Shown here piece by piece: positions 3,145 through 62,162 of a stretch of DNA of 64,000 bases. The stretch comes from a virus (lineage: Duplodnaviria; Heunggongvirae; Uroviricota; Caudoviricetes). Numbering within the stretch: the first letter of the stretch is position 1; every line of letters starts with the position of its first letter. Location: the IMG/VR virus record IMGVR_UViG_3300010938_000017. One strand, given 5' to 3'. Below the pieces are notes generated by a model. That model saw only the letters and a list, made by a program, of their open reading frames with translations, had not been told where the DNA came from and did not search any database. A program made the position numbers and the translations under genes.

Positions 3145-3262
3145 TACACGCTATATCATTGCGTATATTATCTCTCTTATATGTATTACTTAATACACTA
3201 ATTAATACAATAAATCCTACAAATAGTAAAACTGTGCCCATTTGTGTATTATGGCTTAACAT
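3026..3262 (-). CDS. small single-TM protein with C-terminal CxxC pair, possible holin-like
   Basis: 78-aa ORF containing the TM segment GTVLLFVGFIVLISVLS. It overlaps the 5' end of the M15 peptidase gene; the true start is uncertain. Confidence 0.25.
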   Translation of the reverse strand: MLSHNTQMGTVLLFVGFIVLISVLSNTYKRDNIRNDIACNERGEIHAWTFRDNEGNSYMVCKKCRRLPSGATEEGNGT

Positions 3263-21417: not shown

Positions 21418-21741
21418 ATGTCACAGAAATTAGAAGCCATGATTGAAAATCTGGCTGAAAAGATCGATAATTATAAGTCACAAACCGATACTCGTCTTCT
21501 TAATGTAGAAAAGGTACTGGTTGCGTTAGATATTAATATGGAAACTCATATGAAAAGATCTGACATGTTAGAATCTTTATATAATCATATTAGAGAAAAA
21601 GATCTAAAAGAAATCAGAGAAGAAATAAAACCAATTCAGACGCATGTTAGTCACGTTGAAGGTGCCCTGAAATTATTAGGAACGTTAGCTCTTATCGTCA
21701 CCATCGTCGGTGGATTCGCCAAGCTCTTTAACATAATCTAA
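21418..21741 (+). CDS. small protein with C-terminal TM anchor
   Basis: The start is placed at the ATG directly after the TAA of the preceding gene. The C-terminus reads LGTLALIVTIVGGFAKLF. Confidence 0.4.
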   Translation: MSQKLEAMIENLAEKIDNYKSQTDTRLLNVEKVLVALDINMETHMKRSDMLESLYNHIREKDLKEIREEIKPIQTHVSHVEGALKLLGTLALIVTIVGGFAKLFNII

Positions 21742-22179
21742 ATAATCAATCATCGCGTCCTCTACAAATGCCGGATTTAAAGATTTCTTCTTATCCAGGT
21801 ATTCCTTCTTTCTCAATAACGCTTCATAATCCAAACGATCAATCATCTTAAGAGCCTTAGCTACACCATACTGATCTCTGTTACGCATATTGGTACGATC
21901 AGTACATTCCTTGACTTCTTTAGCCGTTCTATGGAACTTATTCTTCTTAGCTTGAGACTGCTTAGAAACGTTACCATTATTCCATTCTTTCATAAATATA
22001 GACATCCATTCCAGTTCAGATACCATAGTACCGTCAGGTAACTTATGAACCTTTTTGGTATTATCTAACTTATCAGTATAATCAATATCAATATACTCTT
22101 GACGAATCTTAGTATTATACTCTTTTTTCAATGGTGCCGTAGGGATCTTATCTCTACGACTTTGCTTTTTTTTGCTCAT
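21685..22179 (-). CDS. hypothetical Lys-rich protein
   Basis: 164-aa ORF. Its 3' end overlaps the 3' end of the convergent plus-strand gene. Confidence 0.4.
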   Translation of the reverse strand: MSKKKQSRRDKIPTAPLKKEYNTKIRQEYIDIDYTDKLDNTKKVHKLPDGTMVSELEWMSIFMKEWNNGNVSKQSQAKKNKFHRTAKEVKECTDRTNMRNRDQYGVAKALKMIDRLDYEALLRKKEYLDKKKSLNPAFVEDAMIDYLDYVKELGESTDDGDDKS

Positions 22180-22552
22180 GTTGTTCTTTTCTCAGTAGTG
22201 CTCTAGCTTTAAAAAAGCCTTGCGGGGTTAAATCAAATGATTTTGCATTTAATAAGAATCCAATACCGTCATCAGTTTTTATCTTTTCAAACTTAGTTTT
22301 AAAGTAATTGATGAATTTTCTTCTAGGAATTAGTCTGGTTTTCTTCCACAAGTAATAGCTGTAATAAACTACATACGTTGGAACCTTCTTTTTACCAGCT
22401 AATATATTAAGTTCTTGAATGAACTTATCGATCTCAGGATTTGATTGTGGTTTCTTTTCCTGAACCTTTGGTTTGGCACTGGCCAGCTCTAATAATTTAT
22501 CTAGATCGTCTTTACCCTTCATATTTATTTCTTTTTTTTTTAAGATTATCAC
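22154..22552 (-). CDS. hypothetical protein
   Basis: 132-aa ORF. Confidence 0.4.
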   Translation of the reverse strand: MIILKKKEINMKGKDDLDKLLELASAKPKVQEKKPQSNPEIDKFIQELNILAGKKKVPTYVVYYSYYLWKKTRLIPRRKFINYFKTKFEKIKTDDGIGFLLNAKSFDLTPQGFFKARALLRKEQHEQKKAKS

Positions 22553-22817
22553 TAGCCCAAAGAGGTTGTAGATTTATATAATGATTTAATATATGAATAT
22601 CATTAATACTATTAGCTAAAGATAGGGGTTTAATATGATCTATGTGCCATTTACCTTGGTTTTGCCAGGTCATTCCTGGTTCAAATTTTTGTTCTAAATA
22701 GCTTTTGAATTCTAATATTGAACAACCTAAAATCTGGTTATAACTTGATTTTTTTTGATTCCTAACTTTATTAGGATTTTTTAATTTCCAATTTCGAACT
22801 GCCTTGGCTTTTTTCAT
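22512..22817 (-). CDS. HNH homing endonuclease
   Basis: The sequence HIDHIKPLS...N...N...LQPLWASDN matches the HNH motif. Confidence 0.6.
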   Translation of the reverse strand: MKKAKAVRNWKLKNPNKVRNQKKSSYNQILGCSILEFKSYLEQKFEPGMTWQNQGKWHIDHIKPLSLANSINDIHILNHYINLQPLWASDNLKKKRNKYEG

Positions 22818-23206
22818 CGTTTAACATTAGCCGCAATAACCCCCGTTATTAATACACCCAAACCAAAATATGCAAACTTTTGCCAATTGTCTTCGTTTTC
22901 CTTCTTAGTGACACGTTCCGCTAATAGCTGACTCTGATCCATATACAATTTCAAACGCTGATCTAATATACTAATTTCCTTATTAGTAGCATTTCTACGC
23001 TCAAATAATCTTTCGCTTAATTCTTTGTAGTGTTTGGCATCCAGGATTGCTTCGTCTGCTTTTTTACTAGCTTCTGGAGAAAGTAAGATACCTGTACAAT
23101 TAGCTGTCTGTCCCTTTTCAAGGTATTGTGCCTCAAATGGACACTGATCCACTTGAGCATATGTTAATTGACTAAATACAAGGATAGCAGCTAATACGAT
23201 TTTCAC
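22814..23206 (-). CDS. secreted protein with N-terminal signal peptide and C-terminal TM anchor (spanin-like topology)
   Basis: A signal peptide (MKIVLAAILVFSQLTYAQV) is followed by a coiled coil and a C-terminal TM (FAYFGLGVLITGVIAANV). Confidence 0.45.
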   Translation of the reverse strand: MKIVLAAILVFSQLTYAQVDQCPFEAQYLEKGQTANCTGILLSPEASKKADEAILDAKHYKELSERLFERRNATNKEISILDQRLKLYMDQSQLLAERVTKKENEDNWQKFAYFGLGVLITGVIAANVKR

Positions 23207-23514
23207 TTCAGGTTCTTCCTCATGGCTTCGGCACGTTCTTTAAGAGTCATATTTTTATCACGTTGACGTTTAGCTTCACGTTCGGCTTGCAACTTAGCAA
23301 TACCATCATCTAGTGACTTAATGGTATCCTGCACATCCTTTTGATTAACAGAAAGTTGTGAATCCTTACCACGAATTTCAGCAAGTTTAGAATCTGTTTC
23401 AGCCTTCTCAGATTTATTCTTATAAAAGAATACTCCACCAACTAACATTAAAATTAGACCAATAATATATTCCATTATTTTCTCCAAATTAAAGGATTTA
23501 AAGTGTTTCGACAA
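23203..23514 (-). CDS. N-terminal-TM coiled-coil protein (i-spanin-like topology)
   Basis: TM segment IIGLILMLVGGVFFY followed by a charged coiled coil. Confidence 0.45.
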   Translation of the reverse strand: MSKHFKSFNLEKIMEYIIGLILMLVGGVFFYKNKSEKAETDSKLAEIRGKDSQLSVNQKDVQDTIKSLDDGIAKLQAEREAKRQRDKNMTLKERAEAMRKNLK

Positions 23515-24362
23515 AAATCTTTAAGTGAGCTACTTTTAACTTCTTTACATTTAGTATAATCAAATACTCGATTAAAAATGCCTTTATCATCCACTTTTGT
23601 ACCAACGGCTACCCATTCAAAATGATTAGAATTCTGTGTAAAGTATAGTAAAGGTAATTGTGGAACCATATAACCATAACTCAAACCTTCACCATTACCA
23701 GCAAATACAACACCAATTACTTCGCCTTTTGTGTTAAAAACTGCGCTACCTGAACTTCCAGGCATAACTAAATTAGATATTAACTGTGCTTCCAGTTTTG
23801 TAATAACTGGCATACCACCAAGGAATATACAAAATAGTGGATTCTCACCTTCTTTACCTTCACAAGGGATCACACCGGCTAATAACTCAATTTCTTTAAT
23901 TTCTGAAAGATGACCTTGCGATGAAAGATGGGGAAGTAAGTTTGGATGACCTGACACTATAGACACATCTGATACTTTAGCGGGATCTTGAGATATTTTT
24001 AAACTTACTTTAAGATTGGCTTCAATCCGAATTAAACAAAGATCATGTTCAGGAAATTTTTTATAATGAGTAATTTTTGTCATCTCATCTTTATAAAGAA
24101 CGTTACCACCTTGTTCGATCAGACGGCAAACATGTTTATTAGTTAATATATAAGTCGCTTTTTCAGTTGACTGAAGAATTGATCCCGTTCCACCGCTTTT
24201 CATTTTTACATCAATAATCCTTACGGACGTTTCTTTCATATCGGCAATTGTTTTGGGACGACTTGTTTTAGCTGATGCAGATGCGCCTATCGTTAAAATA
24301 CTTACTAACAATATAATTATTTTACTCACTTTATTCTTCCTTACCTGCGTATTGTTTTCCAC
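23475..24362 (-). CDS. secreted trypsin-like (S1/DegP-type) serine protease
   Basis: A signal/anchor (KIIILLVSILTIGASASA) is followed by a His motif (TNKHV), an Asp (DLCLIRI) and a Ser motif (GSSGSAVFN, resembling GDSGGP). Confidence 0.6.
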   Translation of the reverse strand: MENNTQVRKNKVSKIIILLVSILTIGASASAKTSRPKTIADMKETSVRIIDVKMKSGGTGSILQSTEKATYILTNKHVCRLIEQGGNVLYKDEMTKITHYKKFPEHDLCLIRIEANLKVSLKISQDPAKVSDVSIVSGHPNLLPHLSSQGHLSEIKEIELLAGVIPCEGKEGENPLFCIFLGGMPVITKLEAQLISNLVMPGSSGSAVFNTKGEVIGVVFAGNGEGLSYGYMVPQLPLLYFTQNSNHFEWVAVGTKVDDKGIFNRVFDYTKCKEVKSSSLKDFCRNTLNPLIWRK

Positions 24363-24546
24363 CTATGTTTACTCGACGACCAAAATACAGGGTGGCGCAT
24401 GCATAAAACAATTGCATTAGCGGCTCAGGATTCTTTGTTTGGTCGAGAACTGCGGCAATTGAAAATCCTGCAGCTAACACGAAACTAGCTACAAGGAAGG
24501 TCAACGAAACTGATACTTCACCGTTCTTGGGGTCTTTAAGATACAT
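24331..24546 (-). CDS. small membrane protein
   Basis: 71-aa ORF with two hydrophobic segments. Confidence 0.35.
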   Translation of the reverse strand: MYLKDPKNGEVSVSLTFLVASFVLAAGFSIAAVLDQTKNPEPLMQLFYACATLYFGRRVNIGGKQYAGKEE

Positions 24547-24549
24547 GAC

Positions 24550-24870
24550 TTACCAAACGATATTCAGAACAATAAACTCGCCGATTTTGTCATCTTTGCG
24601 GGTTTCAGCAGTTACAGCGTAACCTGCTTCAGTAAGTTTATCGGTAACGGTTTTCAAAAGAACTTGATCAAATTGAGGATGGAGATTAGCCGAGTAATTA
24701 CGGGCTCCATTGTCAGTAGCTACTTTAACCATTGAAGACATAAGGGTCTCAAGGATGCTGTTTTTCTGACGTTCAAAAAGACTTTCTTTAGTTGCAGTCA
24801 TCTCACGAAGAGTTTCTGCGGGAACAATTTCTGTTACATCTGATTCTGTTGCTGTCGTTGCGCTTTGCAT
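24550..24870 (-). CDS. hypothetical protein
   Basis: 106-aa ORF with an AAGGAG Shine-Dalgarno. It is preceded by a sigma70-like promoter containing a palindrome. Confidence 0.45.
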   Translation of the reverse strand: MQSATTATESDVTEIVPAETLREMTATKESLFERQKNSILETLMSSMVKVATDNGARNYSANLHPQFDQVLLKTVTDKLTEAGYAVTAETRKDDKIGEFIVLNIVW

Positions 24871-24902
24871 TTTTACTCCTTAGTAGTGTTATTATTAGAT
24901 GT

Positions 24903-24925
24903 TAATGTCTCATTATGAGACAGTC
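24903..24925 (-). promoter_or_regulatory. perfect palindrome TGTCTCA-TTA-TGAGACA inside a TTGACT-N17-TAACAT promoter-like context
   Basis: The coding orientation reads cagTTGACTgtctcataatgagacatTAACAT, about 35 nt upstream of the ATG at 24870. Confidence 0.45.
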
Positions 24926-25259
24926 AACTGTTTTTTATCTCTTTTCTTAATTTATTTTCTTCTTCAGTCTTTTTATCATGGCAAGGACCACATAAGGCTT
25001 GATAGTTCTCTTCTGAACAGAACAGTGATTCCACATACTTACCTAGGTTTTCAAACCCTGTAATAGCCACTACAGGAAATTTATGATCCATGAATATTTC
25101 TTTAGGTCCAAAGATTTCTTTACAGTTATTACACTTATACAGTCCACGAGATACTCGTGCAAGCTTTTTAGCTTCATTACGTGGTGGCCATTGATAACTA
25201 AGTCTACGTAGCTTAGGAATTAACCACGTTTTAAGATTTATTGGTTTCTTTTTTTTCAT
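24924..25259 (-). CDS. HNH-type endonuclease (zinc-finger)
   Basis: CNNC...H..F pattern typical of small HNH nucleases. Confidence 0.5.
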   Translation of the reverse strand: MKKKKPINLKTWLIPKLRRLSYQWPPRNEAKKLARVSRGLYKCNNCKEIFGPKEIFMDHKFPVVAITGFENLGKYVESLFCSEENYQALCGPCHDKKTEEENKLRKEIKNS

Positions 25260-25618
25260 TTTAAAGGTTTAATCCAGTTTTTTGAATACTCAGTTAATCG
25301 TATGATATGTTTAGCAAAAAAAATATAATCTAAGCTTTTTTTCATTGAATTACATGTTCTACAACATGGAAGACAATTATGTGAAATATATCCTTTATTG
25401 TTATCAATTCGATCTAGACCATTATATGGAATTTTTTTAATTCGTGCTCGACCAATACCACACAAATTTGAAGATTCAATTCCACAGTAATAACAAGGTT
25501 GAAAAATTAGATCCCGAAAATCTTTAGGTGTTAAACTAAATTCTAACTTTCGTCGTTTAGATTGAACTTTATAAATATTATAAATTGATCTAGATGCTAC
25601 ATCTAATGGATCTTTCAT
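25256..25618 (-). CDS. HNH homing endonuclease
   Basis: The sequence NGLDRIDNNKGYISHNCLPCCRTCN is present. Confidence 0.55.
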   Translation of the reverse strand: MKDPLDVASRSIYNIYKVQSKRRKLEFSLTPKDFRDLIFQPCYYCGIESSNLCGIGRARIKKIPYNGLDRIDNNKGYISHNCLPCCRTCNSMKKSLDYIFFAKHIIRLTEYSKNWIKPLK

Positions 25619-41722: not shown

Positions 41723-41999
41723 TATTATCTTTTTTCACAATCCCGTAATTTCTATCTCTTTCCTCAGTTGCAAAATTATATCCAAGATGAATCAAGGCTT
41801 TCTTAGCCTGACGAAGTAGCACGATATAATTCTTAGTATTACCACCCTGAACAAGTGCTTTACCATCATGATTTACAATTTCAAATGTGAAATTTTCTCT
41901 ATCGATAACAATCCTGACGTTCTCACCACTAGTAGTGCCATAAGTCTGTCTAGAAATTCCAATCGCGCCTTCAAAATCGTATCTAATTCGTTGATGCAT
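41715..41999 (-). CDS. hypothetical protein
   Basis: 94-aa ORF. Confidence 0.35.
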   Translation of the reverse strand: MHQRIRYDFEGAIGISRQTYGTTSGENVRIVIDRENFTFEIVNHDGKALVQGGNTKNYIVLLRQAKKALIHLGYNFATEERDRNYGIVKKDNNG

Positions 42000-42029
42000 A
42001 TTTTCTCCTATCTCATAATGATACGATCA

Positions 42030-42284
42030 TTAAGGTGTATTGTCAATAGAATGTTCTTCAAGAAGCGCCTCTATTGCTTCATACATAACTAAGCGAAATC
42101 TCTTGATAATATGGCGTTTCGTATTCGATCTTAAACCAGTAGCCTTAGCTACTAAGTACATTTGTTCCCAAGTAAACCATATTTTATCATCATCATCGAC
42201 TTGTTTTAATATTGGTTTTTCCTTAGTGTGTTTTTGTAAAAGGTCACAATAAGGCTTACGATGTGCCGAAAATCTACGTTTCAT
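42030..42284 (-). CDS. hypothetical protein
   Basis: 84-aa ORF. Confidence 0.35.
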   Translation of the reverse strand: MKRRFSAHRKPYCDLLQKHTKEKPILKQVDDDDKIWFTWEQMYLVAKATGLRSNTKRHIIKRFRLVMYEAIEALLEEHSIDNTP

Positions 42285-53128: not shown

Positions 53129-53389
53129 CTATTTTACTTCATAAAATTGTTTATTGATATTCAAACTACTTACTGTCTCAAGATTAACCATACGGTAATC
53201 TTTGGCTTGCATGTCAAAGACAGTGATCAAGTTATAGTCACTTGGATCATAGGTCAAGCCGTTACCATTAGTCTTATTTGAAACACCAAGTCTACAATTC
53301 ATCTTCCTTACTTCACCATCCTTCTTAGTAAAAGTTACTGTAAAGATCTTACCATTTGATTTAGTGATCAAATCCTTTGCCTGTTCCAA
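53129..53389 (-). CDS. hypothetical protein
   Basis: 86-aa ORF. Confidence 0.4.
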   Translation of the reverse strand: MEQAKDLITKSNGKIFTVTFTKKDGEVRKMNCRLGVSNKTNGNGLTYDPSDYNLITVFDMQAKDYRMVNLETVSSLNINKQFYEVK

Positions 53390-53654
53390 ATCAAGAATGT
53401 TTGCATTAGCTTCTGTCTTCTTATTAACCTTAGCCTTAGAAACTTTTACTTCTTCTTTATCATAACCAAGACAACTAACAGTACCGTCTCGTTTCAGGAT
53501 ATATGTATATTCCTGTCCACAATCTGAGTCGTAGGGAACAACCTAATCAATCCAGCAGTTGTTCTCATTTTGAGATTCCACTTAATAGTCGGTACCACAA
53601 CAGTAGGAAACTTCGCCTTGAACTGAGATACAACCCTATCAATGATATCCCGTT

Positions 53655-53855
53655 TCATAACACTTCAATCTTTTCTTCTTCAATACAACCCATGTCAATA
53701 TATCTTACTTTAGATACATTAAACTTTAAGAACGTATCAATCTTAGATAGAGTCTCAACTTGAAACAACTCCAATTGTTTCTTAGTAGGTTTAATAAAGT
53801 AATGTTCTTTAACTAAACAGTTACCAAACAAATCAACCGCTTCAATTTTATACAT
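53655..53855 (-). CDS. hypothetical protein
   Basis: 66-aa ORF with a Shine-Dalgarno; promoter-element copy 2 lies upstream. Confidence 0.4.
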   Translation of the reverse strand: MYKIEAVDLFGNCLVKEHYFIKPTKKQLELFQVETLSKIDTFLKFNVSKVRYIDMGCIEEEKIEVL

Positions 53856-53870
53856 ATCATATCCCTTTTG

Positions 53871-54425
53871 TTAAGAGCTACAAACACCGTACACTAGCCA
53901 GCGTAACTCTCTACTATTCTTATCGGCTTTCTTTTGTAGAACTTTAGCCTCATCTGAAATTTTCTTATTAACTAATGCAAGTTTATTATTAAGCGATTGT
54001 TCCTTATTAGTATATGTATTAGATGCAAACGAACCATCACATATTGGACAACGTAACGTTCTGGTACGGAATCGTGTATCAAGTTGAGACTTACAATGTG
54101 AACACTTAATAAACTCAACCGCTTTTAACTTCGACTCAACATGAGACGCTTTTTCAGTTCGTAACAATCTAATCTCTTCTTCAATTTTGAGACGTTGCTC
54201 TTTAAGACGTTTCAGTTTAGCACTCTCTTTAATTTTATTGCTTGTCTTAAATTGAGCCGCTAATGCATCACCCCATTTTTTTGCATTATTAGCACAATAA
54301 TCATACGCCTCATTTAGGGATTCGAATGTCTTATTAGTAAACGTTAATCCTGTACACATATTGAGAATAAGAGTTACCAGACTCATATTTACATTCATCT
54401 TGATACTCTTTAAACTTTGCCTCAA
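53871..54425 (-). CDS. zinc-ribbon / coiled-coil protein (start uncertain)
   Basis: Zinc-ribbon motif CSHCKSQLD...CPICDGSF. The longest ORF begins at a TTG; probable ATG starts lie at 54398 or 54385. Confidence 0.4.
   Translation of the reverse strand: MRQSLKSIKMNVNMSLVTLILNMCTGLTFTNKTFESLNEAYDYCANNAKKWGDALAAQFKTSNKIKESAKLKRLKEQRLKIEEEIRLLRTEKASHVESKLKAVEFIKCSHCKSQLDTRFRTRTLRCPICDGSFASNTYTNKEQSLNNKLALVNKKISDEAKVLQKKADKNSRELRWLVYGVCSS
53918..53947 (-). promoter_or_regulatory. conserved promoter-like element, copy 2 (diverged)
   Basis: The coding orientation reads CTAAAGTTCTACAAAAGAAAGCCGATAAGAATAG. It overlaps the 3' end of the upstream gene. Confidence 0.4.
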
Positions 54426-54507
54426 CTTGAGACATTGTTAATTTGCCGTCAAGTTCAATAGAATCGTCGCAAGCTCCCATATAATTCCTCCGTCTCATTT
54501 TGAAACG

Positions 54508-54753
54508 TTAGTCGCTCGTGTCCCAGTCTGAATCAATTAGTGTTAACTGACCATCTGCTTCAATATAAAACAATCCTGTTCCCCATTTGGCACGTTTAGG
54601 TCTTGTCTCAAATTCATCCACATAAACGTCTCGATGTAAGACACCTAATTTTTCTAATGCAGGATCAATTGATTCAATATGAAACGGTCGTGGCATATAG
54701 TTTAAAACGTGCTGACCTAATTGAATGTATCTCATTATGATACCTTTGCCCAC
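54508..54753 (-). CDS. hypothetical protein
   Basis: 81-aa ORF. Confidence 0.4.
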   Translation of the reverse strand: MGKGIIMRYIQLGQHVLNYMPRPFHIESIDPALEKLGVLHRDVYVDEFETRPKRAKWGTGLFYIEADGQLTLIDSDWDTSD

Positions 54754-55412
54754 TTCGTATTAGTATAAGATTTTGTCCCATGATAGCACAGTCCCACTTT
54801 GGGATTGTTACCCATAGCTGTTACCATATCATCTTGAGTCGCATCACTATAACCCGCTGTCTTAAGTTGAGACACTGTCTCAAATACACGCGAATGAAAA
54901 TCTTTATTAATATCAATTAGAGAATCCTGTTTGCCTCCAAATGAGAATATAACTCGGAAGTTCTTAGGAATACGTTTCTCACTTTGATACTGTTTGAACA
55001 TCTTAACTTGTTTAGTATAGGCATAAAATGATACAGTACTCGTTGACTCAAATCGACACATGATCATTAGCCACTTATCAAGATATGTCTCATTATAGAA
55101 ATCACCAGCATCGTGGATTCTCACTTTGAGATGCTTAGTGTTTCTCTTATTGATCCACTTTTCAATCTCAGCAATCATATCAGTAACGAACGTATCAGTT
55201 TGAGTTAATGCTAATTTAGCTTCGTGTGCTTTTGAGACATTGTTCCAAATGTAGGCACCTTGTTTAGCATAACAACCCGCAGCACATAATCCCGCATTGG
55301 GACATGTCTTAAGACCTGTCTTAGATTGAAACGCTGGTATCGTCCAGTTCACTACAGTAATCCCATTTTGAGACGACTTCTTCATCTTTGCGTTTTGTGT
55401 TAACAATTCCAT
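54735..55412 (-). CDS. hypothetical protein with Cys cluster (CPNAGLCAAGCYA)
   Basis: 225-aa ORF with an AAGGAGG Shine-Dalgarno; promoter copy 3 lies upstream. Confidence 0.5.
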   Translation of the reverse strand: MELLTQNAKMKKSSQNGITVVNWTIPAFQSKTGLKTCPNAGLCAAGCYAKQGAYIWNNVSKAHEAKLALTQTDTFVTDMIAEIEKWINKRNTKHLKVRIHDAGDFYNETYLDKWLMIMCRFESTSTVSFYAYTKQVKMFKQYQSEKRIPKNFRVIFSFGGKQDSLIDINKDFHSRVFETVSQLKTAGYSDATQDDMVTAMGNNPKVGLCYHGTKSYTNTKWAKVS

Positions 55413-55428
55413 GTGTCCTCCTTACAAT

Positions 55429-55461
55429 ATAACTTATCGGTATTATTCTAGAAAACTTTAG
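55429..55461 (-). promoter_or_regulatory. conserved promoter-like element, copy 3
   Basis: The coding orientation reads CTAAAGTTTTCTAGAATAATACCGATAAGTTATATTGT, followed by AAGGAGG and the ATG. Confidence 0.55.
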
Positions 55462-55523
55462 GACTAAATCAACTATTTTTCTGTATCATTTCGAGGCGCT
55501 TCCCCCGTTTCATTCTGATACGA

Positions 55524-55949
55524 TCAGTTCCCAAAGTGAGATGCTATAACTGATTTAGCAAACAAATGACCATCATCCCTAATACGCTCAAGCGTCTCAT
55601 TAAGATCCACAGGATGATATAGATTGTATTGTTTTGTGTCAACTCCAGCCGCCTCAACTTGATACTTACTCATCTCAAAACAGACCGTTAGTTCAATAAC
55701 TCCTTTTGAGGCACGAGGAAACTCTTGTCTCATACTGGGTCGTGCATAACTTGGTACGCCTCGAACTGATACGGCATCAAGTACAACATTCTTAATTTGA
55801 GCCATGCCAGCCTCAAGAGGATTCTGTTTCTTTTTGATACGGTTAAATTCTTTTGCATCAAATTGAATCACTACAGCCAGTTCATAGCCATCTTGTCCAT
55901 AGCCACGCTGTCTCTGAATGACACCTTTCATCGATTTAATATAATTCAT
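55524..55949 (-). CDS. hypothetical protein
   Basis: 141-aa ORF; promoter copy 4 lies upstream. Confidence 0.45.
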   Translation of the reverse strand: MNYIKSMKGVIQRQRGYGQDGYELAVVIQFDAKEFNRIKKKQNPLEAGMAQIKNVVLDAVSVRGVPSYARPSMRQEFPRASKGVIELTVCFEMSKYQVEAAGVDTKQYNLYHPVDLNETLERIRDDGHLFAKSVIASHFGN

Positions 55950-55962
55950 GTTGTCCCCTTAT

Positions 55963-55996
55963 AATAACTTATCGGTCAACTCTCAAAAAACTTTAG
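55963..55996 (-). promoter_or_regulatory. conserved promoter-like element, copy 4
   Basis: CTAAAGTTTTTTGAGAGTTGACCGATAAGTTATTATAAGGGG, followed by the ATG. Confidence 0.55.
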
Positions 55997-56289
55997 AGCT
56001 AAATTGAGATCTTTACAAATAACAGCGACCACATTTGATACTATCATAATAGTACACTGTCTCAGCATGGGCCATATACTCTTCATCACATTTCCAACAG
56101 CCCACTTTGATACGTTTACCAGTGCCGCGATAATATCGATATAAGACCATAAGCTTAAAAGCCTTGTATCAAATATAGACACGCGATCTACCATATAGAT
56201 TTCTTGATGCCAAATATAAAAACTGTTTCATAATAGAACGCTTAATAATGGGGCGACTTGATAATATCGCCCTAATCTCTTGTTTCATA

Positions 56290-56661
56290 TTAATACAACT
56301 TTTCTTGTACACAATCGTACACATAAGAACTGTCTTCATTTAATACGTCTAATTCTTCGTCAGTCATTTCCCTGCCTTGATATGAGGCGCTTGCAATAAA
56401 AGCATCACAAAAGTCAGGATAGTCTCGTATATCAATACCATCCACTTCAACATCCTCAATTTGAGAATAGTCCAGTTTGATACGTTCTCTAATAGGACCA
56501 TGTGTAAATAGACGAATCTTGTTTTGATCCATTGCTTCAAATCGAGACACCCAACGTTTGTATCCTGCCTCTGTCTTAAATTTAAACGTTCGTCCCTCTG
56601 TGAAACGCTCACGCGGTACCATCACCTTAATCACATACCCTATAATTTTTCGTTCTGTCAT
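56290..56661 (-). CDS. hypothetical protein
   Basis: 123-aa ORF; promoter copy 5 lies upstream. Confidence 0.45.
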   Translation of the reverse strand: MTERKIIGYVIKVMVPRERFTEGRTFKFKTEAGYKRWVSRFEAMDQNKIRLFTHGPIRERIKLDYSQIEDVEVDGIDIRDYPDFCDAFIASASYQGREMTDEELDVLNEDSSYVYDCVQEKLY

Positions 56662-56670
56662 ATGTCCTCC

Positions 56671-56707
56671 ATATATATACTGATCGGTATCTTATCAGAA
56701 AACTTTA
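56671..56707 (-). promoter_or_regulatory. conserved promoter-like element, copy 5
   Basis: CTAAAGTTTTCTGATAAGATACCGATCAGTATATATATGGAGG, followed by the ATG. Confidence 0.55.
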
Positions 56708-56806
56708 GTCAAAAACCACATTTATTTTCGTCTCACTTTGAGGCGTTAAGGGAACGCCTCAAATAGAGATGGACTAAGGTATCTCATATTAAGACACCTT
56801 AACTAT

Positions 56807-57004
56807 CTAAGACACCTTAACTATAAGACCATCTTTCATGGTCACTTGAGCGTACCATTTCCGAACGTATGGAGATGGGCCAACGACACAAAATGAGCCG
56901 TTTTCTTTATATTCAGGACCAAACATAGATGTCTCAGTATAATTCAACGGTTTCCCAATTTGAGACTTCAACTCTTTTTTCGTTTTATAATTAGCACCCA
57001 TCAT
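56807..57004 (-). CDS. hypothetical protein
   Basis: 65-aa ORF with an AAGGAGG Shine-Dalgarno. It is preceded by a 155-nt leader downstream of promoter copy 6. Confidence 0.45.
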   Translation of the reverse strand: MMGANYKTKKELKSQIGKPLNYTETSMFGPEYKENGSFCVVGPSPYVRKWYAQVTMKDGLIVKVS

Positions 57005-57160
57005 GGAACGCCTCCTTTTGATACAGTTATTATTCTTCGTATGAATATGGATCGTCTCTCAAAATAAAACAACCTGCATTCCGGTTGACCGAAGATAGAC
57101 GCATATCAGTCCTATCGATTAGTCTGGCCACCGCTTACCGGCTTACCATCACCGCGCTTA

Positions 57161-57195
57161 CATATAATTTATCGGTGTCTTTTCGTAAAACTTTA
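57161..57195 (-). promoter_or_regulatory. conserved promoter-like element, copy 6
   Basis: CTAAAGTTTTACGAAAAGACACCGATAAATTATATGT. Confidence 0.5.
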
Positions 57196-58305
57196 GCAAT
57201 ATATTAACTATTTTATTGACTCATAACGATACATGCATCAAAATGGGATTAACAACTGAATGTGAACGAACCATCTTGAGACAAGGCCCGTATTGTCTCA
57301 TTTTGAGCCGTTCCTAAATGAAACATAAGGAAATGTGTCATTTTAAAGCAATCAACATAATAGTTCGTCCCATATCAAGGTGTTTGATTGTGAGTGTATT
57401 AAAACTAATCGTATTGTAATGATACGACTCATTTCGAGACTAATCCTGCTGTGGTACGTCTCAAGGTGAATGAGCTAAAATGTGACATATTCGTGACCAC
57501 CTATTGAATGTCTCACTTTAATACAACTAGCCTATTATGAGGCCTAGTATCATAACGAGAATAAAGTGTATTAATTCGAGACTTAACCCTCTCTAATGGA
57601 TTTTTTTAACTATAATATAAAATGTTATTAAGTTTAACCTATTTAAGATAATATATAACACAATCCTGATGAGAATTAGCTTATTTAACTTGAAATAATA
57701 TATATTTCATCTAATAGAGTATATTAACTTATCCTGAAATGATACAGTAAACTATATTGAATCTGAAGTGAAATCAATACGTTATCACATCTAATGTAAA
57801 GCATTGTAAAAGCATCTACAATAGAGTATATAATGAATGTATTAATACCTATTAAGACTGTATCTTTTTCTATAAATCACATATAACAGCTAAAAACTAA
57901 TAAATTGTCACGGATAAGTGTCTCAAAATGGTATTTTGGCATCTTATTTGCAGGATAATGGTGTGTCTCACTATAGATACACTTTAAAATCGCTATATTA
58001 AGCTATAAACGCTTAGTGTATAATCATTTTACGCTCCAAAATGAGTCATTTATCCTGTGTATTAACCTTAGAATAGGCTATATTAGTGCCTACAATGACA
58101 TATGAGAGGCGTAGCCTGAACGGGGTCACTGGGGGTCACTCGGTAACATCATTTTAAATACCTATTTCTACTACGTTTTTAATACATGTTACTCAATGAC
58201 ACCAGGTTCGGGTTTCAATATGATACAGGCACAATTCTTGCAAATACAAAAACCATGCCATGTCTCATTTTGATCCTCCGTCTCAAATTGATACGTTTAA
58301 TTTAG

Positions 58306-58345
58306 ATACAAAAAAACCCTGTACCATTGCGATACAGGGTAAAAC
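58306..58345 (-). terminator. Rho-independent terminator
   Basis: The minus strand reads CCCTGTAtcgcaatggTACAGGG followed by T7, just downstream of the stop at 58371. Confidence 0.65.
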
Positions 58346-58370
58346 TTGTGTATTAACACCTATGGGACGA

Positions 58371-58595
58371 CTAGGCTACACGTTTTTTATTGAGAAAATC
58401 AACCTTAATAACATTATGGTCGTTTTTAAGACGCTTATGGATTTTAGCCATCTGAAATTTAGCTATAGCCATTTCTTTACTCCAATATGAGATAGCATAC
58501 TGATCGCCTGTCTCACATTTACATTGTAACGCCGTACCACACTGAGAAATCCTTTGGGCCAAAATATTTAATGCACCGATATAATACTGTCTCAT
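58371..58595 (-). CDS. hypothetical protein
   Basis: 74-aa ORF with a GAGGGAG Shine-Dalgarno and an ATGAGACAG start. Confidence 0.45.
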   Translation of the reverse strand: MRQYYIGALNILAQRISQCGTALQCKCETGDQYAISYWSKEMAIAKFQMAKIHKRLKNDHNVIKVDFLNKKRVA

Positions 58596-58910
58596 TTTGA
58601 AACTCCCTCTTCTTTAAGTATGTGTCTCACTTAAAAACGCTTTTAAATCTTAATTTGAGACAATAATTTATCAATTAACTCTTGTCTCATATTAGCCCAC
58701 CTCGTCCAAGGTCTCAAAATCGTCCACATTCTCAAAATAGTCCTCAATCTCAAATAGAGACTCTTCATCTAGGAACGTAACATCCTGAGACAGTTTCTCT
58801 ACTAATTCTGCTTTCTCAGTTTCAGTCAATTGGTATACATTTACATCATGTTTCATAACGAGTCGTCCCCTTTTCGTTAATGTTTATTCACTTAATTCTT
58901 AACTGCCTGA

Positions 58911-58945
58911 CATATAACTTATCGGTGTATTAACTCTTAACTTGA
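58911..58945 (-). promoter_or_regulatory. conserved promoter-like element, copy 7
   Basis: CTCAAGTTAAGAGTTAATACACCGATAAGTTATATGT. Confidence 0.5.
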
Positions 58946-59610
58946 GGTATTTTGTCATCTTATTATTCTATGGATACCATAAGCAGAACTGCGTCTCATA
59001 ATGAAACCCCTTTCTCCGTTGTCTCATTTTGATACACTTCCTCCGGCATGGTTATTGCATGGGGGCACAGTGGCACGGTTTATGCATAACTGGGTATGGC
59101 TGGCACAGTATGTGCAATATCAAGAGTCATGCCAACGTCTCAGGTTGAGACAGAGGGAGGGGTAGGGGGGATGGGGGGTACAAACAGACGAATGACCGGA
59201 AATGTCTATATACTAGAGAGAGTATTTTATTAACAATACAACTTATTACACTTAATCAGACTTTTCAGATTTCTTTCTTAGAATAGTCTTTGGAGTAAAC
59301 GATTGGTCTTTCGGATAGAACTTTTCACGTTCTCTACGTTTCTTTTTCCAGTAAGGATCATCCTTATCGGCGTACCGACCTTTCTCACTTTTAGATAAAA
59401 ATCTCATAATTTATTATCACTAGACATTAATAAAACGGTTCTCGATCACATTGGCCAGGGTAACTGGCTTGAGCCGATAAGCAACCATCTCACCACTATG
59501 AGCATTTCAGCTCTTTGGAGTAGGTGACACTCAAGACTGGTACTCTTTGGTCCGCGCCAGTACGCAATTAAATTATCTCTTATATAATTTTTGAAGTCAA
59601 TTATAACTTA

Positions 59611-60296: not shown

Positions 60297-60371
60297 TGGC
60301 GTACCCTCTTGGAATCTAACCAAGGACCTTCGACTTAACAAGACGCTGCTCTAACACTGAGCTAAGGGCAC
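60297..60371 (-). tRNA. tRNA-Asn(GUU)-like gene with encoded CCA and a weak anticodon stem
   Basis: The minus strand reads GTGCCCTTAGCTCAGTGTTAGAGCAGCGTCTTGTTAAGTCGAAGGTCCTTGGTTAGATTCCAAGAGGGTACGCCA. It has a 7-bp acceptor stem (one G-U), a 4-bp D stem, a perfect 5-bp T stem and a TTGTTAA loop. The anticodon stem has only 3 of 5 pairs, and A56 and the absence of G18G19 are atypical. Confidence 0.5.
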
Positions 60372-62068: not shown

Positions 62069-62162
62069 ACTAACTCCTAAAAATGGTCTGAGTAACAGGA
62101 TTTGCACCTGCGTCTTCCAGATTCCAGATCTGGCCTGCACCTATTTCCAGCCACACTCAGGA

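Follow-up and report, generated by a model that had tools for sequence, protein, structure and literature searches.

Operators that overlap sigma70 promoters are typified by the OR and OL sites of phage lambda, which are bound by CI and Cro, while the lambda ori/O region exemplifies an arrangement in which iterons are located within the initiator gene. In the T4-type phages, promoter-early stem-loop (PeSL) cassettes comprise, in order, an intergenic stop codon, a promoter, a stem-loop, a Shine-Dalgarno sequence and a start codon (PMC2839356), with the stem-loop placed between the -35 and -10 hexamers in the commonest subclass (PMC2839356; PMC4122927). What is conserved in the PeSL stems is their structure (G-run, loop, C-run); they act as transcription terminators, and each copy is accompanied by a promoter (PMC2839356; PMC4122927). 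The stoperators of the Cluster A mycobacteriophages are asymmetric sites for a monomeric immunity repressor and are spread genome-wide in these temperate phages (PMC9283540; PMC6550527). Lambda-type operators, PeSL cassettes, stoperators and lambda-O-type origin iterons are the closest layouts to that surrounding a palindrome at 24.9 kb in a phage sequence of 64,000 nucleotides, the whole of which was analysed here and is referred to as the window, and none of them fits it fully.

As in the lambda operators, the 24.9-kb site is 17 bp long and two-fold symmetric, with half-site centres approximately one helical turn apart, and the motif overlaps the -35 hexamer and spacer (24.9 kb) or the -10 hexamer (a second site at 42 kb) of a host-type promoter, the activity of which is predicted. 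Unlike in lambda, where the operators form a cooperative triplet, a single site is present per promoter, no adjacent repressor gene or lysogeny module was seen in the window, and a neighbouring region carries some 80 copies of the motif, most of them not at promoters. The succession of upstream stop codon, -35 hexamer, stem-loop in the spacer, -10 hexamer, Shine-Dalgarno sequence and ATG is shared with the PeSL cassettes, as is the clustering where small orphan genes form a hyperplastic region, in phages with rIIA and rIIB. However, the half-site sequence rather than the pairing is conserved here, the orthologues do not fold, and most copies lack a promoter, many of them being intragenic. The presence of many copies of one short site besides the promoter copy recalls the stoperators, but the present motif is a palindrome that occurs in just one 6.5-kb block and at two promoters, and family scans of ~60 ORFs found no repressor or integrase. 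Similarly, the lambda O iterons are inverted-repeat sites with a CTCA-N3-nGAG core that can lie in coding sequence, and three unrelated contigs (L153, L115 and L146) use the identical 15-mer as tandem iterons beside a winged-helix initiator-like gene, in a lambda ori/O-like arrangement. Those arrays have four to six copies at a fixed 20-22 bp period in one gene, whereas about 80 irregular copies occur here, with a single site at 24.9 kb and no homologous initiator gene detectable. The unusual feature is not the single site, but the ~80-copy array in the adjacent variable region, which is conserved across a new phage clade.

The palindrome at 24.9 kb and its promoter-like setting

The palindrome, TGTCTCATTATGAGACA, is a perfect 7+3+7 inverted repeat of 17 bp at positions 24906-24922 (plus-strand reading), and represents the best copy (14/14) of the clade motif TGTnTCA-N3-TGAnACA. 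On the minus strand, a -35-like hexamer TTGACT (24927..24922), the last T of which is the first base of the palindrome, is followed by a 17-nt spacer (GTCTCATAATGAGACAT; 24921..24905) that is filled by the palindrome, and by a -10-like hexamer TAACAT (24904..24899). A Shine-Dalgarno sequence AAGGAG (24881..24876) serves a 106-aa gene (24550-24870, minus), the ATG of which, at 24870, is 35 nt from the end of the palindrome. Upstream is a gene for a 111-aa HNH endonuclease (24924-25259, minus; PHROG HNH families, E = 8e-13), with its TGA stop codon (24926..24924) inside TTGACT, such that the 3' end of the HNH gene overlaps the -35 hexamer and the putative promoter sits in the 53 nt between the two genes. 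A preliminary description of this DNA had reported both the perfect palindrome and its place in the spacer of TTGACT-N17-TAACAT, 35 nt before the 24550-24870 gene, and it was correct in sequence and coordinates. Its wording of a near-consensus promoter is an overstatement, as TTGACT-N17-TAACAT scores 9/12 and the region from 20 to 30 kb holds 34 such matches compared to 36.2 in shuffles, which places the promoter match alone at chance level. Since the 9/12 match is not significant by itself, it is conservation in relatives that supports the promoter.

All genes from ~64 kb to 21.7 kb are encoded on the minus strand, and the 106-aa gene is the first of a distal cluster reaching ~21685. No family or fold could be assigned to its product using Pfam, PHROGs and comparison of an AlphaFold model with the PDB; the model (pLDDT 77) had no significant match in the PDB, the best being an R3H domain (E = 0.03). 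The distal cluster (21685-24870, minus) further encodes a 71-aa membrane protein, a secreted trypsin-like protease (295 aa), a protein with a weak Rz-like spanin match, and others, and may represent a lysis-related cassette. The gene order of this cluster is also kept in two of the orthologous loci considered below (L089 and L090).

Four independent orthologous loci (L082, L083, L089 and L090) were reached through homologues of the 106-aa protein, which is 51-55 % identical in L082 and L083, those in which it was measured, and of the neighbouring 90-aa protein. An HNH gene is found at the corresponding position in 5/5 phages (the window and the four relatives), and at 4/4 orthologous loci it is followed by TTGAC-TCA-NNN-(T/C)GAnA(C/A) and then by a Shine-Dalgarno sequence and ATG. 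The sequences after TTGAC are TTGACTCAATTTGAGACG in L089, TTGACTCAAAATGATACA in L090/L091, TTGACTCAAAATGAGAAT in L083 and TTGACTCAGAACGACACA in L082, and the respective -10-like hexamers are TAAGAT (N18), TCTAAT (N18; a poor match, with TAATAT at N20 as alternative), TAAACT (N16) and TAGTCT (N17). A TAnnnT box 16-18 nt after TTGACT is present in four of the five phages (the window, L082, L083 and L089); by our own arithmetic, which ignores shared ancestry, the chance of such a box at one of three spacings is ~0.12 per locus, and that of finding it in four of five is ~1e-3. In L089 (12.6 kb) and L090 (10.5 kb), the site at this locus is the sole one with at most one mismatch.

The TTGACT hexamer is invariant in the five phages though the reading frame of the HNH gene differs: its TGA serves as the HNH stop codon in the window and L082, while in the other three phages the GAC encodes Asp and the stop codon is the TGA of the right half-site. 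Invariance across two different frames of the HNH 3' end points to constraint on TTGACT at the DNA level. In the four relatives the left half-site overlaps TTGAC, and part of TTGACTCAnnnTGA encodes the HNH C-terminus (LDSK*), so that conservation at the site could partly reflect coding constraint. The window has 4-5 extra bases compared to the relatives, by which the left half-site is made perfect and is separated from TTGAC, and despite this 4-5 nt difference to the left of the window site the distance between the -35 and -10 hexamers is still 16-18 nt. A second contig from the same sample (L081) is identical save for deletions of 41 bp (25234-25274) and 47 bp (22885-22931), the former of which removes the junction of two HNH genes and truncates the 111-aa HNH gene.

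A second promoter-embedded site occurs on the minus strand at 42 kb, where TTGACA (42046..42041), N17 and TATCAT (42023..42018) form a putative promoter before a conserved 94-aa gene (ATG at 41999), and CGTATCATTATGAGATA (42025..42009) overlaps the -10 hexamer. In two related phages (L086 and L088), TTGTAG or TTGCAC, N17 and TATCAT occur with TGTATCATTTTGATATA at the corresponding place, while a third (L084) has TTGACA-N17-TATTAC without a site; the promoter-embedded site is thus found in three of the four phages. The sequence TAATACAC is located immediately upstream of this promoter in L086 and L088. A single-sequence model of the 94-aa protein (pLDDT 57) was too poor to use. The placement of the site in a promoter-like sequence, which the preliminary description took for an operator within a promoter, is kept at the four loci orthologous to the 24.9-kb site and has a second case at ~42 kb, but it does not describe most copies in the array, which are without a promoter.

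The motif array upstream of rIIA

The consensus G-T-n-T-C-A-(A/T)3-T-G-A-n-A-C was built by aligning all TGAGAC copies of the array region, and the clade consensus is (T/C)GTnTCA-(A/T)3-TGAnAC(A/G). A search of the 64-kb window for further TGTCTCANNNTGAGACA sites, as proposed in the preliminary description, returned 12 matches with at most two mismatches compared to 0.33 in shuffles, with 11/12 located within 53.7-59.2 kb. The only 14/14 match is the site at 24906-24922, and arithmetic from the base composition gives an expectation of ~2e-4 perfect 14/14 sites in the 53 kb outside the array. Using the relaxed pattern GTNTCANNNTGANAC for counts, with expectations taken from shuffles, 53-59.5 kb yielded 26 sites when one mismatch was allowed (0.17 expected) and 78 when two were allowed (4.3 expected). 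In the other 53 kb, one site without mismatches (that at 24906-24922; 0.07 expected) and two with at most one mismatch (2.0 expected) were observed. The 24.9-kb site is a true copy, and the best one, of a motif that is defined elsewhere in the genome. The motif matches and the alignment of copies bear out the earlier suggestion that the palindrome has the same half-site as the 53-59 kb motif; the accompanying notion of dispersed loci is reduced to two sites beyond one dense 6.5-kb array, the other 53 kb being at background density.

The array upstream of rIIA (53150-59152) runs through both coding and non-coding DNA, with irregular spacing and some 15-bp tandems. Most of its copies are found in coding sequence or without a promoter, and a sigma70-like match (at least 9/12) overlaps 5.9 % of 119 sites compared to 8.9 % of control positions, which argues that most copies are not operators within promoters. 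Long metagenomic contigs of three relatives (L084, L086 and L088) were reached through rIIA homologues with 46-55 % identity. With up to one mismatch allowed, the 10 kb upstream of rIIA contain 21 sites in L084, 39 in L086 and 33 in L088, against an expectation of ~0.3, while the 12 kb downstream of rIIA contain 0, 2 and 1, respectively, which is background density. Gene content upstream of rIIA differs strongly among these phages, and only three window ORFs from this region (rIIA, a GP88-family protein and a 56-aa ORF) are matched in all three relatives. Considering this variability in gene content, the motif is a conserved property of the hyperplastic region, and not of particular genes. About two thirds to three quarters of the motif copies in L086 and L088 are inside called genes. 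Head-to-tail 15-bp copies are also found within a small gene in each of these two phages (L088 5522-5803; L086 5109-5357), where they encode C-terminal SQN(D/E)x pentapeptide repeats.

Several other sequence elements occur in and around the array. A C-rich tract (e.g. CCCCCCATCCCCCCTACCCCTCCCTC) at 59153-59180 (minus) lies directly ahead of the first array site in the window, and such a tract likewise precedes the first site in L084 (~2490-2514) and L088 (~893-911), forming a sharp upstream boundary of the motif-rich region; in L086 (~485-517) there is just a short C-run, ~30 nt before the first site. Sigma54-like strings (TGGCAY-N6-TGCW) occur four times in the window compared to 0.35 expected, at 57937-57952, 59071-59086 and 59101-59116 (plus) and at 59045-59060. 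Three of them cluster in a non-coding block, antisense to the genes and adjoining motif sites, and similar strings in varying orientation are present in L084 (2548, 3438 and 8679) and L086 (593). The sequence TTAATACAY has 11 copies compared to 2.5 expected, including six in gene orientation (minus) inside the non-coding block 57394-58933 and one at 3190-3198 (plus) in the divergent intergenic region that precedes the structural genes. Three minus-strand copies (56680-56730, 57160-57215 and 58900-58945) were noted of a longer conserved unit, CTAAAGTTTT ... A(C/T)ACCGAT(A/C)A ... TTATAT/TATATA, and are readable as weak promoters consisting of a -35 hexamer, N16-17 and a -10 hexamer with a conserved spacer. 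The sequence GCTAAAGTTTT is present in the relatives too.

Symmetry of the site and its candidate roles

Over 124 sites, the free fourth position is occupied by C, A or T on the left and by G, T or A on the right, and the two free positions are complementary in 43 of these sites compared to 46.2 expected if they were independent, i.e. there is no covariation. Mixed half-sites (e.g. TGTCTCAnnnTGATACA) occur frequently, the stronger half-site is found on the coding strand of the window but on the opposite strand in L086 and L088, and the intragenic sites occupy both frames that avoid an in-frame TGA. The motif is two-fold symmetric, both in the perfect 7+3+7 copy of the window and in the clade consensus. 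The lack of covariation, the mixed half-sites, the strand reversal and the intragenic frames together argue for a symmetric protein site rather than an RNA or extruded-DNA hairpin, and the comparison of copies indicates that the motif operates at the level of double-stranded DNA, as a site with two-fold symmetry.

On the basis of these sequence comparisons we favour, with moderate confidence, the reading that the palindrome is the binding site of a symmetric, probably dimeric, sequence-specific DNA-binding protein particular to this clade, and that it acts as a promoter operator. At 24.9 kb, such a protein would recognise the motif within the spacer of a predicted promoter of the host type (sigma70-like), where the site touches the -35 hexamer, and this promoter would drive the last leftward gene cluster, from 24870 to ~21.7 kb. 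As the sites at 24.9 kb and 42 kb both overlap a putative host-type promoter, the bound protein would be expected to keep RNA polymerase off the promoter, with the site working as an operator, and the same protein would also occupy the ~80 sites upstream of rIIA and the second promoter at 42 kb. We infer that the promoter fires, that the protein represses rather than activates it, and that the protein is phage-encoded. The dimeric regulator anticipated in the preliminary description agrees with the symmetry of the site, the absence of covariation (43/124) and the mixed half-sites, but the regulator gene itself did not emerge: Pfam and PHROGs searches of ~60 ORFs (including most of those of at least 100 aa), with the window representing about 64 kb of the ~84-kb genome, returned no helix-turn-helix or other regulator. 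An additional 1.6 kb of the source genome beyond the window contained no sites and no winged-helix homologue, and a literature search for the motif string gave only unrelated primer and enhancer matches. Since most motif copies are not at promoters, transcription control may not be the main task of the protein.

A broader possibility, which we consider doubtful and put forward tentatively, is that one dimeric protein coats the 6.5-kb hyperplastic block by means of the ~80 palindromic sites, written through both coding and non-coding DNA and kept while the genes turn over, and that it also gates the two promoters. If this were true, the coating protein could silence or time the whole block beside rIIA, or serve it as initiator and regulator combined, and the coating of a region would constitute a previously undescribed way of marking part of a phage genome. 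As a region-wide silencing or timing device, the array would represent a third type beside the stoperators and the PeSLs; if the motif is an operator only, it would be well documented but a regulatory site of an ordinary kind. Present in more than 100 copies in the four genomes, the conserved cis-element offers a handle on gene expression or replication in such phages, with the exact 17-mer available as bait for the binding protein and the two promoters as places to measure its effect.

An unlikely explanation is that the motif serves a replication initiator or replisome organiser as a site of the iteron type, with an origin in the non-coding block at 57-59 kb and with the promoter sites secondary, serving autoregulation or coupling as is known for DnaA boxes and Rep operators. 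The array in the window flanks an AT-rich trough of 400 bp (57.5-57.95 kb; 21-26 % GC) that is itself without motif sites and has site clusters on both sides, a layout that resembles a replication origin, and the 15-bp head-to-tail arrays inside genes would also be in keeping with iterons. Furthermore, an exact-motif scan of IMG/VR retrieved L153, L115 and L146, unrelated contigs in which 5-6 GTCTCAnnnTGAGAC sites occur at a 20-22 bp period (L153 12068-12180; L115 3156-3260; L146 98-200), inside or just after a winged-helix gene. The encoded protein shows HTH_36 at E = 5e-8 in L115, and a homologous 'IPRASxYRAI' domain is present in L153 and L146. The GTCTCA-N3-TGAGAC specificity would thus appear also to serve for origin iterons of winged-helix initiators in unrelated phages, but since these contigs were picked by the motif itself, their resemblance to the array is partly by construction. 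The winged-helix protein has no homologue in the window, in L213 or in the loci of five relatives, and ~80 sites over 6.5 kb far exceed any described origin. An iteron role also leaves unexplained the exact retention of the site at the promoter -35 hexamer and spacer in five phages.

It is quite improbable that the locus is a PeSL-like cassette, in which the stem-loop in the transcript would act as a terminator or attenuator of upstream transcription and the repeats would promote the shuffling of small genes by recombination. The hairpin of the window is stable in RNA folding (-11.6 kcal/mol; z = -3.5), and the motif-rich region is hyperplastic, with just three window ORFs matched in all three relatives. 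However, the four orthologous loci fold like shuffled sequences (z from -1.3 to +1.1), such that a stable hairpin is found in the window phage only; it is the half-site sequence and not the pairing that is conserved across phages, and the free stem position does not covary. The array copies are not enriched at promoters (5.9 % compared to 8.9 % of controls), and the majority of those in L086 and L088 are inside called genes, as given above. As an intrinsic terminator the site was rejected, with 3/7 G-C pairs in the stem, a tail (UUAACAUCUAAUAA) without a U-tract and no call in the terminator scan. Considering the lack of covariation and of conserved folding, roles at the RNA level, whether as hairpin, terminator or translational operator, were discarded. 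An Rfam scan returned two tRNAs and nothing else.

That the palindrome is recognised or cut by the adjacent HNH endonuclease, or is left over from its homing site, is a very remote alternative: although the HNH stop codon is one base away from the start of the palindrome and an HNH gene is found there in 5/5 phages, four phages contain over 100 further motif copies that are not beside HNH genes, and no HNH-free allele was found for comparison. Chance occurrence of a palindrome in AT-rich intergenic DNA is scarcely credible, for although this sequence contains many short inverted repeats and 9/12 promoter matches, only 0.07 exact matches to a motif defined elsewhere would be expected in 53 kb, and the site is kept at the orthologous position in four other phages.

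Other classes of site do not match the motif. The N4-type hairpin promoter has a 5-7 bp stem and a 3-nt loop extruded from the DNA, and is used by a giant virion RNA polymerase. These stem and loop sizes fit the 24.9-kb copy only, with pairing not maintained across copies, and a promoter for a virion or phage RNA polymerase was rejected as the large ORFs (including one of 1439 aa) contain no polymerase motif, the sites occur in both orientations and pairing is not required. NifA-like upstream activating sequences have the form TGT-N10-ACA, are positioned 80-150 bp upstream of a GG-N10-GC promoter and are bound by an AAA+ activator. A sigma54 upstream activating sequence was likewise rejected, as the spacing here is TGT-N11-ACA and no sigma54-like sequence is found near 24.9 kb, the only such matches being those on the opposite strand at 57.9-59.1 kb. 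No AAA+ activator emerged from the family scans of the larger ORFs, which were not designed for such a protein. The parS site (TGTTNCACGTGAAACA) resembles the motif in its outer bases but differs from it in spacing and at the free position, and no ParB was found in the family scans.

The phage lineage

The window derives from a phage, encoding DNA polymerase B, a primase-helicase, rIIA, rIIB, ribonucleotide reductase, ThyX, dUTPase, NAMPT, PRPP synthetase and several HNH endonucleases. A megablast search of the locus against phage records returned no match, and among the phage-collection matches listed, identity does not exceed 28 % for DNA polymerase B and 34 % for rIIA. When guided by the 106-aa protein, the DNA polymerase or alignment A1, scans of IMG/VR yielded no relatives, and that guided by the dUTPase retrieved distant, unrelated contigs only. 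The phage (~84 kb) represents an uncultured lineage without a close cultured relative. Its protein records are JGI metagenome data, and a near-identical 8-kb contig is present in sample 3300003890. Two tRNA genes were distinguished in the window, a weak one at 62087-62160 (minus; Rfam 35.6 bits) that is absent from the ARAGORN calls, and a tRNA-Asn at 60297-60371 that is called by both Rfam and ARAGORN.
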